10,229 nt of DNA from IMG/VR virus record IMGVR_UViG_2541047831_000006. One strand, given 5' to 3'. The DNA comes from a virus (lineage: Duplodnaviria; Heunggongvirae; Uroviricota; Caudoviricetes). The position numbers and the translations under genes were made by a program. Below the pieces are notes generated by a model. It had not been told where the DNA came from. It ran no database searches and was given only the letters and a program-made list of their open reading frames with translations. Shown here piece after piece: positions 253 to 4,451 of this stretch (its first letter is position 1; each line of letters opens with the position of its first letter).

Positions 253-2714
253 TTAGTGCTTCCCTTCTATTAAGTCTAACCTAGCTTTTATTCTTTCTAT
301 TTCTCTGCGCTGCCATGCTGCCTCGATATAGAATAAGAGATCAGGTCTGACCCCCCATCTAGATCCTGCTGGCGTTATTTCAACGCGCTCAATGATGTCT
401 TCCATTACCATCACTGGATTATCATCCTCATCAACAATGATGCTCCCGTCATTATCAGTCAGCGGCATTTCCCTTTGGCCAGTAATGACGTCATCATATA
501 CTGCGGGATAATCGTCATAGCAAAGAAAGGCATAGCGGCATGTTGTGCTTTCTTCTTCCATGAGTCCGTGAGAAATAAGAACATCACGAAGTTGCTGCGC
601 GATTACACCATGATGTATCCTCGCCCCTTCTTCCCCCTTTATAGCGACAGCGTTCAGCCATTTATAAGCGATATACCTGACGTCACCCCAGGCATCCAGC
701 AATGTTTCGTCAGGAGAGACCGGCTCTGTCTTTAATGTTCCGTCACTGGTAACCACAGGATTGGAGCCAAGATAAACTATCGAGAACCTGTTTCCCGGAC
801 CACCAAGAGCATTTACATTATCAAGATAAGGTTTAACATCTCCGTTCTCAAAAAGATGTTCGAGTGCGTTATATACCGCGCGACGTGGAGTACTGCTTCT
901 GGAACCATGCAACGTTATCATTGCACCATCTGCTGAAGACGTTGTTTCACCGCCGCTAACGATTAATCTCTGAGCGGTAACATCATCAGACGGTACTTTC
1001 TTCGCAATAATGGCGTAATTACCCTCAAGTTTGACTTCCGCGCGAACTTGTCCTGATGTACCTGCATGGACAGTCAGTGACTGGACGGCAACATCATCTG
1101 TGAAATCAACGGGTACAGGAACCGTCCTCACGCCTGACGTCGACATAAAAGTAGGAAGCGTTCTGTTAGGAGTGGCTCCGTAGACAAAATCCCTTGAAAC
1201 AAATTCTTCCTGTTTAATTTTCACCCTGAAACAATACAAATCAGCCGGGTGACCATCGTGAACATAAGGATATTTTCTGTTGTTATCCCCTATGCTCCAT
1301 GGGTTTAGAAAGTCTTCCCCACCGAAAATGTAGTACAGCCAGTTGTCTTTGATACAAACTGAACCAACACCAACCGCAGAGTTAACTATTCCGCCCTGAT
1401 AAATCTGATCAGTAACATTAACCCACTCTACATTATCCAGACTCCACTCATTGACGTTAACTCTGGTCATAAATGTTCTTGGATAGTTTCCTGCATAACG
1501 GTTATCAGGTTCTCCTCCTTCCCACTCACCAAATGCGCGCTCACTGCCAAAAATAATCAGCTCATCGCCAACTTTGGCAAAAGGAAGGTTTGAGTGATGA
1601 ACATTATTTGGGAAGCGAAGAGAATTCCATGATGTACCTAAATCAGAGCTTCTGTGCAATGAACTACCGGGTTGAGTACTTAATGTCCCCCTGGTCGTCA
1701 GATACAGAATGCCATCATAATATTTTACACATGGCTCAGATGCATTCGCCTCATATTCTGCAGGTATGCGTCTGCGAACAAAGCTACCAGGAGAACCGAA
1801 AGCATCAGAGAAATAGAGTATCCCAAGCTCGCGTGGACCAATATCACCATTATGGTAGCCAACAGCAAAACTGTTATCGCTAATCGTCGCAAAACTGTGA
1901 ATCTCAGTAACAGGAGTGCTTCCGTCAACAAAAGAAGGAATAGTTCCAAGACTGGTTTTTCTCCATGGTGACGAGTGAAATGATGTACCAAAACTCCAGT
2001 ATCTACCCTCGTTATTCTGATCCACATCCTGGGTATTTTGCGTCGTAACTGTAAAAGTATTTTTATCAATAACAGTAGTCACCGTCATATTCCCGGTAAC
2101 ACCTGTAACACCAGAGTTTGAGAAGTTGACAAAATCACCAGCAAATAATCCGTGATCAGTAATGCGAATATAAGCGACTTGCTGATTTGCTGCTTTCGTT
2201 ATACCACCATAAACGCGAAGGCTGCGACTCATTGGGCGATCCCACAACTCTGCAACCTGCAGTTTATTTCCGCTCACGGTCCGCGTCTCAATTACAGCAA
2301 AAAGGCGATTTCTGACAACCCCCATACTCATGCAGTGATAGTTAACTGTGGGATAGTTTTCATGTAAATCTGTAAGCCATTCCGGCGTTGTCCAGGTCTT
2401 CCCGTCATCTCCTGAGCGAACCCATGCAACATGGAGGTTATTTACACCATGGCGGTCTCCAGCCATAAAAGGCGCATAGATGACATTGTCATATACAAAC
2501 GTTTTATCCTGCGTCCAGGCGTTGTACCACGGTGTATCTGTAATTTTAAATAACTCTCCCTGGATAAAATCTTCAGAAACATAAAAAAGAGGCTGACCCG
2601 GTATTCTCTCAAATAAAAAACGAGCATTTTTAAATCGACTGACATCTGGAAGAGTTGATACTTTAAAAGTAAGCCCTCGCCCATCTATCTTTTCACCACC
2701 TGTTGCAACAGAAA
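253..2714 (-). pseudogene. Endosialidase (endo-N-acetylneuraminidase) tailspike, 3' portion: catalytic region plus C-terminal intramolecular chaperone domain; separated from its 5' portion by IS911
   Basis: The 737-aa ORF (253..2466) aligns by eye to phage K1F endosialidase (DRHGV..HVSWV.SGDDG.TW.TPEWLTDLH..YPTVNYHCMSMGV, through LGSNPVVTSDG and the IHHGVIAQQLRDV chaperone region). The same frame stays open upstream of the first ATG through 2467..2714 (SVATGGEKIDGRGLTFKVSTLPDVSRFKNARFLFERIPGQPL...), so the ATG at 2466 is internal. The reading frame runs into the IS911 end at 2715. Confidence 0.85.
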
Positions 2715-2744
2715 TGAAGTGGTCAACAAAAACTGGCCACCGAG

Positions 2745-3563
2745 TTAGAGTTTTTTCCAGTATCGATTTTCCGATTCGTTTGGTGGTAACCCACCATTAT
2801 ATTCGTGCGGTCTTAGTGCGCTGTAATATCCAACGATATAGTCCGTTATTGCGTGAGCTGCATCGCTGAAGCTTACATAGCCCGTCGCCGGCACCCATTC
2901 GTTCTTCAGACTCCTGAAGAAGCGCTCCATTGGGCTGTTATCCCAGCAGTTTCCACGCCGACTCATACTCTGCCTGATCCGGTATCTCCACAGTAACTGC
3001 CGGAACTGCCTGCTCGTATAATGACTGCCTTGATCGCTGTGGAACATCACCCCGACGGGCTTACCACGGGTTTCCCATGCCATTTCCAGTGCTTTCATGG
3101 TAAGCCTGCTGTCCGGCGAGAACGACATGGCCCAGCCCACTGGTTTTCTTGCGAACAGGTCGAGAACAACGGCGAGGTACGCCCAGCGCTTACCCGTCCA
3201 GATATAGGTCACATCACCGCACCACACCTGATTTGGCTCGGTCACGGCGAACTGCCGTTCAAGGTAGTTAGGGATAGCAACATGTTCATGACCACCACGT
3301 TTATACCGGTAAGTCGGCTGCTGACAGCTGACCAGCCCCAGCTCTTTCATGAGTCTGCCAGCAAGCCAGCGCCCCATCTGGTAGCCTCTCTGGGTTGCCA
3401 TTGTGGCGATGCTTCTTGCTCCGGCAGAGCCGTGGCTGATGCCATGCAGTTCAAGTACCTGGCTGCGTAATACAGCCCGTCTGCCGTCTGGCTTTTCAGG
3501 ACGGTTTTTCCAGTATTTGTAGCTGCTGCGATGGACCCCGAACACATGGCAGAGAGTGGCCAC
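2745..3563 (-). CDS. IS911 orfB (transposase catalytic part; expressed as OrfAB fusion by programmed -1 frameshift at AAAAAAG, 3635..3641 on minus strand)
   Basis: 272-aa ORF from its first ATG with IS3-family DDE transposase features; the orfB frame is -1 relative to orfA. The true fusion protein begins at the orfA start. Confidence 0.8.
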
Positions 3564-3589
3564 AGGATAACGCGCCCTGAGTTTCCCGA

Positions 3590-3892
3590 TTATCGAGAAC
3601 TGTTCAGGGAGTCTGACATCAAGAGCGCGGTAGCCTTTTTTAATATTTCATTTTCCATTTCAATACGTTGTAGCTTTTTCCTGAGCTCACGGATTTCAAT
3701 TTGTTCCGGGGTAATAGGGGAGGCTTTTGGTGTTTTTCCCTGCCGCTCATCACGTAATTGTTTCACCCATCGCGTCATTGTGGAAAGGCCGACATCCATA
3801 GCGCTGGCTGCATCTGCCACGGTGTAATTCTGGTCAACGACCAGTTGAGCGGATTCGCGTTTAAACTCTGCGCTGAAATTTCTTTTTTTCAT
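3590..3892 (-). CDS. insN: IS911 orfA (100-aa HTH/leucine-zipper regulator; N-terminal part of the OrfAB transposase)
   Basis: Sequence [53 protein letters not shown]... matches IS911 OrfA as I recall it. The ORF track's 112-aa version includes an upstream extension with no obvious support. Confidence 0.8.
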
Positions 3893-3964
3893 TATGGCAC
3901 CTGTGTTGTTCTGAGGTGAGCATATCACCTCTGTTCAGGTGGCCAAATTCAGTAAACCACTTCA

Positions 3965-4451
3965 AAAGTAATTCTGATAGAGCTGATGTATCATCATGAA
4001 CACCATCACCAATAGCCCCCCAACCTCTTACATCATAACTGTCTCTCCATCTTGCTATCTGAAGTTTTGGGTATTTATTCGCTCCATCTGGGTCTTCTAA
4101 TTGCTGCCGTAGTTGATCAGGATCATACTTCAGCACATTCTGGAAATAGAACTGCTGTACGCCATACGCATCGTACACAGCCATAGAATGGCCTTGCACA
4201 GTTACGAACTTGGCAATCCGTCCGTTATATACAGGGTAACCAGCAGCGTTAATGATGATTGGTTGCGAAACAGGAACGTGAGAGCCGTCTTCGTTCTCTA
4301 CATAAACCTGAATCCGGTTTTCAGGATTTACCGGGTCAGTGTCAATTTTACCGATATAAATTTTGCCATTGGCTACGGCTTTAAAAGAACGCGCCATAGT
4401 GAAGAGTTGCGAAGGCATCGATACAATCACATTGGCTGTAATGTCTGTCAT
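3965..4451 (-). pseudogene. Tailspike 5' portion: P22 gp9-like N-terminal head-binding domain followed by the start of the endosialidase region; reading frame runs into IS911
   Basis: N-terminus [11 protein letters not shown]...[21 protein letters not shown]...[10 protein letters not shown]...[13 protein letters not shown]...NVLKYDPDQ closely resembles the P22 tailspike head-binding domain. It then switches to endosialidase-like sequence ([20 protein letters not shown]) before the IS junction at 3964/3965. Start ATG at 4449..4451 with GGAG about 10 nt upstream. Confidence 0.85.

Follow-up and report, generated by a model that had tools for sequence, protein, structure and literature searches.

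An endosialidase tailspike gene split by ISEc52 in a decayed CUS-3-like prophage

The window, which is the whole stretch of 10,229 nucleotides analysed here, carries a tailspike gene in surroundings of the CUS-3/P22 type, namely the heptads of neuO, ant, the sar RNA, arc, mnt and the attR core of CUS-3. The AAGACTC heptad repeats of neuO have been described (PMC13001214), and in the same source 43.5% of 8,659 K1 E. coli genomes are neuO-positive. This gene lies directly downstream of the tailspike gene, as it does in the CUS-3 annotation, and ant lies upstream. Positions 9881-10009 are identical (129/129) to the last 129 nt of CP000711, the right end of CUS-3, and include at 9994-10009 the attR core, 16 nt derived from argW; ARAGORN detected no tRNA in the window, only this core. 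The complete virion, lysis, replication and immunity gene set of a CUS-3-type prophage is not present, and the element is a decayed, neuO-carrying CUS-3-like prophage of the P22 family (Lederbergvirus). The features are listed in Table 1.

Table 1. Features of the tailspike locus and of the two IS copies (coordinates of the window; aa, residues of the reconstructed protein)
Feature	Position	Strand	Basis or remark
neuO, 5' end	1..94	-	ATG at 99-97, then at least 13 AAGACTC heptads into assembly gap
Tailspike 3' fragment	253..2711	-	remainder of codon 163 to codon 981, plus stop 255-253
C-terminal intramolecular chaperone domain (Peptidase S74), aa 818-981	256..747	-	PF13884
Endosialidase stalk / tail-spike domain, aa 663-817	748..1212	-	PF12219, 261 bits
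Endosialidase catalytic beta-propeller, aa 213-662	1213..2562	-	PF12217, 775 bits; 1v0e alignment
Nested beta-barrel, aa 324-406	1981-2229	-	PF12195, 157 bits
Target-site duplication TTT, downstream copy	2712..2714	-	
IS copy A, IS3-family (ISEc52/IS911-like), 1250 bp	2715..3964	-	repeats, orfA, OrfAB, rve
196-aa ORF from tailspike start	ends 3861	-	runs in frame into the IS
Target-site duplication TTT, upstream copy	3965..3967	-	
Tailspike 5' fragment	3965..4451	-	codons 1-162 and base 1 of codon 163
P22-type head-binding domain, aa 1-113	4113..4451	-	Pfam PF09008; PDB 7sg7, 2xc1, 1lkt
Terminator-like hairpin	4515..4534	-	between ant and tailspike start; consensus match only
P22-gp16-type ejection protein gene, C-terminal remnant (276 nt)	8355..8630	-	truncated by IS copy B
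IS copy B	8631..9880	+	0 differences in 1250 nt from copy A; inverted orientation

The tailspike gene is read on the minus strand from 4451 to 253, with its ATG at 4451-4449 and its stop codon at 255-253. A preliminary description of this DNA had presented the span as one chimeric tailspike; its start, stop and domains are correct, but the span is not a single open reading frame, as it includes an IS and a duplicated TTT, together 1,253 bp of DNA that do not belong to the tailspike. The interruption was there only implied, by the words "reconstructed protein". The coding sequence is thus discontinuous, and the six-frame list holds it as two ORF fragments of 196 aa (3861-4451) and 737 aa (253-2466). 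The IS follows nt 487 of the gene, within codon 163, and it blocks the full-length protein. In-silico removal of 2715-3964 together with one TTT gives a single ORF of 2946 nt with no other stop, and only by this excision is the tailspike of 981 aa obtained.

The inserted element (copy A) is bounded by imperfect terminal inverted repeats beginning TGAAGTGG and contains an orfA of 100 aa, an A6G -1 frameshift site and an open OrfAB of 382 aa, with the domains HTH_Tnp_1 and rve (DDE). The family label ISEc52 comes from the PGAP annotation of an identical copy in strain PE144. In its length, its TGAAGTGG termini, its 3-bp duplication, its A6G frameshift and its orfA/orfB organization no notable difference from IS911/ISEc52 (IS3 family) was found, and the element presumably resembles IS911 itself. 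An Rfam scan at gathering thresholds returned the sar RNA only and no frameshift element in the IS.

The second copy (copy B) has no target duplication, being flanked by GTT on one side and CTA on the other. In strain S88 its two flanking sequences are separated by 30,139 bp, which marks the junction of an internal prophage deletion; compared with S88, the segment lost is the one that separates the gp16 remnant from the last prophage ORF. It held all the capsid/head, portal, gp4/gp10 tail hub, lysis, replication and immunity (cI) genes. The tail-hub partners of the spike (gp4, gp10 and gp26 equivalents) are not found in the element and fall within this segment, as do the Q antiterminator and the late region with its promoter. 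In P22-like phages the Q antiterminator and the late region drive the expression of the tailspike.

Two identical inverted copies 4,666 bp apart (3965-8630) could be read as a composite transposon with the 4.65-kb ant-arc-mnt-clp-yafO segment as its cargo, or as the ends of an inverted segment, with the split of the tailspike as a by-product. However, copy A has its own TTT on both sides whereas the sequences bordering the pair on the outside (TTT and CTA) differ from each other; the intervening segment is collinear with its counterparts in S88 and PE144, with the same orientation and 100% identity, and the two halves of the tailspike lie on one strand in the correct order. On account of the target duplications and this collinearity the composite transposon and the inversion were rejected, and their probability is practically negligible. 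An inverted repeat that measured 1257 nt, exceeding the IS by 7 nt and hinting at a shared flank, was also set aside: the flanks read ttacttt and ttaagtt, a mismatch-tolerant extension only. The copy-B junction is also carried by PE144 and SF-088, and the tailspike was confirmed to be intact in PE144. By parsimony, from these two strains only, the 30,139-bp deletion bounded by the first ISEc52 copy would have come before the tailspike insertion, which is most simply viewed as a later local hop of the same ISEc52, 4.65 kb away.

Among 5,426 complete E. coli genomes none has either of the two tailspike::IS junctions, which indicates that the insertion is strain-specific. The exact 196-aa fusion ORF, together with the whole window, is present in GCA_000459115.1 on scaffold KE700866.1, and the insertion is unique to this one assembly. 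As KE700866.1 is a 2013-era scaffold with N gaps, an artefact of assembly was considered. The chance of a repeat-driven misassembly is slight and we judge it unlikely, because it would not be expected to create an exact 3-bp duplication of TTT or to leave a reading frame that excision restores perfectly.

Every domain and every key residue of a chimeric tailspike is present in the reconstructed protein. The head-binding domain matches PF09008 with 214.4 bits (cutoff 24), aa 1-113 covering model positions 1-113 of 113. This is in agreement with the preliminary description, in which the N-terminal 110 residues or so were attributed to P22 gp9 and the remainder to an endosialidase of the K1F type. 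The endosialidase portion (GH58, endoNF type; aa 146-817) comprises an N-extension, the beta-propeller with its nested beta-barrel and the stalk, and the Pfam scores are 126.6 bits for End_N_terminal, 775.1 for End_beta_propel, 157 for End_beta_barrel and 260.7 for End_tail_spike. Residues 145-817 align at 66% identity with endoNF of phage K1F (1v0e/3gvl; E=0). The catalytic residues of endoNF are H350, R549, E581, R596 and R647 (PMC12632334), and their equivalents H250, R456, E488, R503 and R554 are all conserved. Directly after the stalk, aa 818-878 match Peptidase S74 (PF13884) with 40.8 bits (cutoff 22), and aa 818-979 match the C-terminal chaperone of endoNF, 3gw6 (56% identity, E=1.6e-69). 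The domain-wise alignments to gp9 and endoNF thus show both ends of the protein to be related to these families, and each of the three modules has a solved structure at 56-88% identity.

The C-terminal domain is predicted to be self-cleaving, as had been proposed, and the cleavage motif that had been placed near 745..750 is found exactly there. The stretch YLGSNPVVTSDG (aa 809-820) is encoded by 774-739, with the T817 codon at 750-748 and the S818 codon at 747-745. A putative Ser/Lys dyad is formed by S818 and K823 (codon 732-730), the Lys being five residues past the Ser of the cleavage site. Opposite Ser818, 3gw6 has an Ala, and T817 is aligned with the last residue of the mature 1v0e chains; cleavage is predicted between T817 and S818. 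The dyad corresponds to what we take to be Ser911/Lys916 in the numbering of endoNF, an assumption that the Ala of 3gw6 supports. The Ser/Lys dyad of the chaperone domain has been described (PMC3742443).

Judging from close homologues whose structure or activity is established, the ancestral protein of 981 aa would have worked as a trimeric spike. Its head-binding domain would dock onto a tail hub of the P22 type and the C-terminal chaperone domain would drive the folding of the stalk trimer, after which this domain would remove itself by means of the Ser818/Lys823 dyad. For endo-alpha-2,8-sialidase activity, the CUS-3 record cites direct-assay evidence obtained for its near-identical protein.

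An intact functional spike arming a P22-like virion against the K1 capsule would be in keeping with this set of domains and residues and with the identical, intact gene of S88, PE144 and numerous further genomes. Nevertheless, this explanation is very improbable here, and unless the IS is an assembly artefact it is already refuted by the sequence, since codon 163 is broken by a 1250-bp IS and the deletion has taken the virion genes along with the Q antiterminator and the late region. The proposed retargeting of a P22-like virion to the K1 capsule therefore holds for the ancestral gene only: here the gene is a split pseudogene and, with the capsid, portal, tail-hub, lysis, replication and cI genes deleted, there is no virion to retarget.

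Another possibility is that the fragments themselves are functional, the 737-aa ORF as a free endosialidase or the 196-aa fragment as a decoy against superinfecting P22-like phages. Both ORFs are open. The longer one, which ORF callers start at the internal Met245 (2466), retains all the catalytic residues and the chaperone domain, and about 985 other E. coli genomes hold tailspikes sharing only the head-binding module, so that such phages are common. On the other hand, the 737-aa ORF lacks aa 163-244 and with them the initial 32 residues of the beta-propeller model, and upstream of its ATG no Shine-Dalgarno-like sequence or other recognisable ribosome-binding site was read. Moreover the insertion occurs in one assembly only, which gives no sign of selection, and the late promoter and antiterminator are deleted. 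A function of the fragments is thus highly improbable, although low-level expression may occur, either of a shortened head-binding product or of a C-terminal one started at an internal site. Translation from the native start would give at most the 196-aa product (the head-binding domain, 49 aa more and 34 IS-encoded aa), with which no spike function would be possible.

We therefore hold with high confidence that the locus is the siaK1-type tailspike of a CUS-3-like prophage at argW in a K1-type E. coli, inactivated by ISEc52 in codon 163. The tailspike is here a pseudogene, an ordinary relic and not a working spike. The span should be annotated as one tailspike pseudogene plus an IS, and not as a "phage tailspike protein" and an "endosialidase domain protein". 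The strain retains neuO, a phase-variable capsule O-acetyltransferase gene, in a prophage unable to form particles, a small but typical case of how prophages are domesticated in extraintestinal pathogenic E. coli.

This 3-kb gene has been hit independently by an IS at least five times (this window, FY26/NCTC11151, GPEC128-620, ATCC 11775 and phiv205-1). It could be suggested that K1 lysogens are under selection for a recurrent inactivation of the prophage endosialidase gene; a leaky endosialidase, for instance, might harm the polysialic acid capsule of the lysogen itself, with neuO being retained. We regard this as improbable. The neighbours ant and clp have IS insertions as well, in keeping with a plain neutral decay of the prophage.

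Among known systems, the tailspike of S88 and PE144 (WP_000129907.1) is identical to the reconstructed gene at 2946 of 2946 nt and is intact there. SiaK1 of CUS-3 (ABQ88383.1; CP000711 2526..5471) has the same 2946 nt and 981 aa, the same domain order and the same neighbours, and differs by 29 nt and 6 aa, all six within aa 43-121, in accordance with the CUS-3 affiliation already proposed. The architecture is thus known from CUS-3, and nothing is added here on how endosialidase tailspikes work. Unlike all three, the gene of this window is split by ISEc52 in codon 163; the prophage around it lacks 30,139 bp. Endosialidase endoNF of K1F (1v0e, 3gvl, 3gw6) shares the catalytic residues and the Ser/Lys dyad, and its mature end aligns with T817; the 66% identity of the catalytic part extends over 665 aligned residues, as against 56% in the chaperone, and the protein described here has a 7-aa insertion (its aa 423-429). 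In place of the P22-type head-binding domain, K1F has a T7-type N-terminal adaptor (PMC5380687). P22 gp9 (72%) and Sf6 gp14 (88%) are similar in the head-binding domain through the YDPDQ hinge (1lkt, 2xc1, 7sg7) but show no similarity past about aa 115, where these tailspikes have O-antigen endorhamnosidase beta-helix domains without a released C-terminal chaperone. The tail fiber of Escherichia phage vB_EcoP_ZX5 (Uetakevirus) and the prophage protein WP_021537279.1 of E. coli SCU-125 share nt 522-2914 (aa 175-971) at 99.5% DNA identity, whereas these proteins of 1039 aa have a different N-terminal adaptor and stand in an epsilon15-like context beside lysis genes.

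The tailspike gene in the window is a pseudogene within a defective prophage. The preliminary description had presented 253-4451 as a chimeric tailspike; its domains and homologies stood, the single gene did not, since one copy of an insertion sequence (IS copy A) splits it. The six-frame ORF list holds no ORF covering the whole span, and the GC content is 0.52-0.57 at ~2750-3750 versus ~0.44 on both sides. A repeat search paired 2715-3971 with 8624-9880 as a 100% inverted repeat. Sequence reading and comparison of the copies revealed a 1250-bp element present twice in identical form, the other 7 nt being only a mismatch-tolerant extension (ttacttt vs ttaagtt). 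The terminal inverted repeats of both copies are imperfect and start TGAAGTGG. Pfam recognises HTH_Tnp_1 in the element's 100-aa product and an rve domain in a second protein, and a -1 shift simulated at its A6G slippery site gives an open 382-aa OrfAB. PGAP labels the identical copy of E. coli PE144 as IS3-like, ISEc52 family; we take the element to be very close to IS911. A direct TTT duplication borders copy A (3965-3967 and 2712-2714), and copy B has no target duplication (GTT on one side, CTA on the other).

Taking out the IS and one TTT, by joining 4451-3965 to 2711-253, restores a gene of 2946 nt with one 981-aa ORF whose terminal stop is the only stop, which places the insertion after nt 487, within codon 163. 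Since the duplication is exact and the ORF perfectly restored, misassembly of the IS junction seems unlikely. At all 2946 nt the reconstructed gene matches its uninterrupted counterparts in E. coli S88 and PE144 (WP_000129907.1; 0 differences). It equals siaK1 of phage CUS-3 in length, with 29 nt and 6 aa differences, which bears out the CUS-3-type affiliation proposed earlier. As judged from the reading frames, the native start would yield only a product of at most 196 aa, the head-binding part followed by 34 residues from the IS; the 737-aa ORF starts at Met245, is without aa 163-244 and has no ribosome-binding site visible upstream. Searching for exact matches to the 196-aa fusion protein returned one assembly (NCBI GCA_000459115.1), whose scaffold KE700866.1 contains the whole window as an exact substring; both tailspike::IS junctions had 0 occurrences in the collection's complete genomes (5,426 E. 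coli).

Features of the window (nt) and of the reconstructed tailspike protein (aa)
Feature	Position	Strand	Basis or remark
neuO heptad repeats	1-94, ATG at 99-97	-	repeat reading, CUS-3 comparison
Tailspike, interrupted	253-4451	-	
ORF 737 aa	253-2466	-	six-frame list
Shared cassette	285-2677		3001-5393 in L007 (vB_EcoP_ZX5); 5001-7393 in L008 (SCU-125)
IS copy A	2715-3964	-	sequence reading, copy comparison
ORF 272 aa	2745-3563	-	six-frame list
ORF 112 aa	3590-3928	-	six-frame list
ORF 196 aa	3861-4451	-	six-frame list
Terminator-like hairpin	4515-4534		
ant	4552-5520		Pfam
sar antisense RNA	5455-5521	+	Rfam RF00262, 83.9 bits; overlaps ant 5' end
Arc and Mnt-like repressors	5687-5875 and 5912-6202		Pfam
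Clp-protease-like gene	6202-6738		Pfam
YafO-family toxin	6787-7236		Pfam
198-aa protein	7245-7841		directly upstream of toxin gene; no Pfam match
Hydrophobic 116-aa protein	7987-8337		no family match
gp16-type ejection gene, C-terminal remnant (276 nt)	8355-8630		stops at IS copy B
IS copy B	8631-9880	+	sequence reading, copy comparison
attR core, 16 nt ttgcaggttcgattcc	9994-10009		3' part of tRNA-Arg argW
torI, host gene	10029-10229		PGAP: TorI response-regulator inhibitor
Head_binding	aa 1-113		Pfam 214 bits
P22 gp9	aa 1-117		72% identity
Sf6 gp14	aa 1-118		88% identity
endoNF of phage K1F (1v0e, 3gvl)	aa 145-817		E=0, 66% identity
End_N_terminal	aa 146-212		Pfam 127 bits
End_beta_propel	aa 213-662		Pfam 775 bits
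End_beta_barrel, nested	aa 324-406		Pfam 157 bits
End_tail_spike	aa 663-817		Pfam 261 bits
endoNF stalk plus chaperone (3gw6)	aa 698-979		chaperone part 56% identity
Peptidase_S74	aa 818-878		Pfam 40.8 bits

All six Pfam matches of the reconstructed protein score above the curated cutoff, and likeness to Sf6 gp14 and P22 gp9 ends at the YDPDQ hinge. In the alignment the endoNF catalytic residues H350, R549, E581, R596 and R647 (PMC12632334) have H250, R456, E488, R503 and R554 as counterparts. T817 aligns with the last residue of the mature endoNF crystal chains; S818 faces Ala in the 3gw6 chain, and K823, five residues beyond, would form with it the Ser/Lys dyad arrangement reported for endosialidase chaperone domains (PMC3742443). 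The T817 and S818 codons, within aa 809-820 (YLGSNPVVTSDG), occupy 750-745, in exact agreement with the autoproteolytic motif site placed near 745..750. The homology statements of the preliminary description, from the head-binding N-terminus to the self-cleaving chaperone, are right and its reading is the textbook one for CUS-3; on balance both the observation and its interpretation hold up in part. The architecture was already published, as a review gives the CUS-3 spike an N-terminal domain of P22/Sf6/HK620 type joined to a K1F-type endosialidase (PMC5380687, citing Stummeyer et al. 2006). The object is known; in the window it is non-functional.

The layout of the window is that of the CUS-3 / P22 immI region, and sar, ant and the Arc/Mnt-like genes (5687-6202) form a complete P22-type immI module. 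What appears to be a cargo cluster occupies 6202-8337, with mnt on one side and the gp16 remnant on the other; the 198-aa protein in it could be the partner of the YafO-family toxin. The neuO start codon is followed by at least 13 AAGACTC heptads, the phase-variation tract of this polysialic acid O-acetyltransferase gene; repeat number and ON/OFF phase are unreadable because position 1 abuts an N run of the source scaffold within the array. At the other end 9881-10009 reproduces the final 129 nt of CUS-3 exactly (129/129), attR core included. There is no intact tRNA within the window, and torI is presumably the excisionase of a neighbouring KplE1-type element.

S88 has 30,139 bp between the sequences that border copy B, and that stretch is missing from the window. 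It comprises the genes for ejection proteins, gp4/gp10 equivalents, coat, scaffold, portal and terminase, along with lysis genes, Q, replication genes, cro/cI and early-left genes; the spike-docking hub and the late antiterminator were both within the lost DNA. Neither a composite transposon nor an inversion can account for the arrangement, given the target duplications and the collinear order in S88 and PE144. The copy-B junction is common to E. coli PE144 and SF-088, and the PE144 tailspike is intact; in the simplest history, therefore, an IS-bounded deletion of the prophage interior would have come first, and in the window's lineage the same IS would then have jumped a short way into the tailspike gene.

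In at least four further lineages the tailspike gene is broken by different IS at other sites: an IS3 family element at ~nt 945 in FY26 (L010) and NCTC11151 and at ~nt 1287 in GPEC128-620 (L011), ISEc12 at the 5' end in the E. coli type strain ATCC 11775 (L012), and an IS66-type element at ~nt 216 in phiv205-1 (L001). The adjoining ant and clp genes carry IS insertions as well, and the loci compared also include AH21I008 (L005) and E10 (L013). These insertions look like general prophage decay, not tailspike targeting.

At least 80% of the tailspike gene is found in ~180 of 5,426 complete E. coli genomes, and ~985 further ones have only the first ~340 nt (head-binding module). The tail fiber gene (1039 aa) of the epsilon15-like Uetakevirus vB_EcoP_ZX5 and a prophage gene of E. 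coli SCU-125 with another N-terminus both share 99.5% DNA identity with nt 522-2914 of the tailspike gene (aa 175-971). Such identity behind different N-terminal adaptors points to a recent exchange of the endosialidase-plus-chaperone cassette between P22-like and epsilon15-like temperate podovirus lineages.
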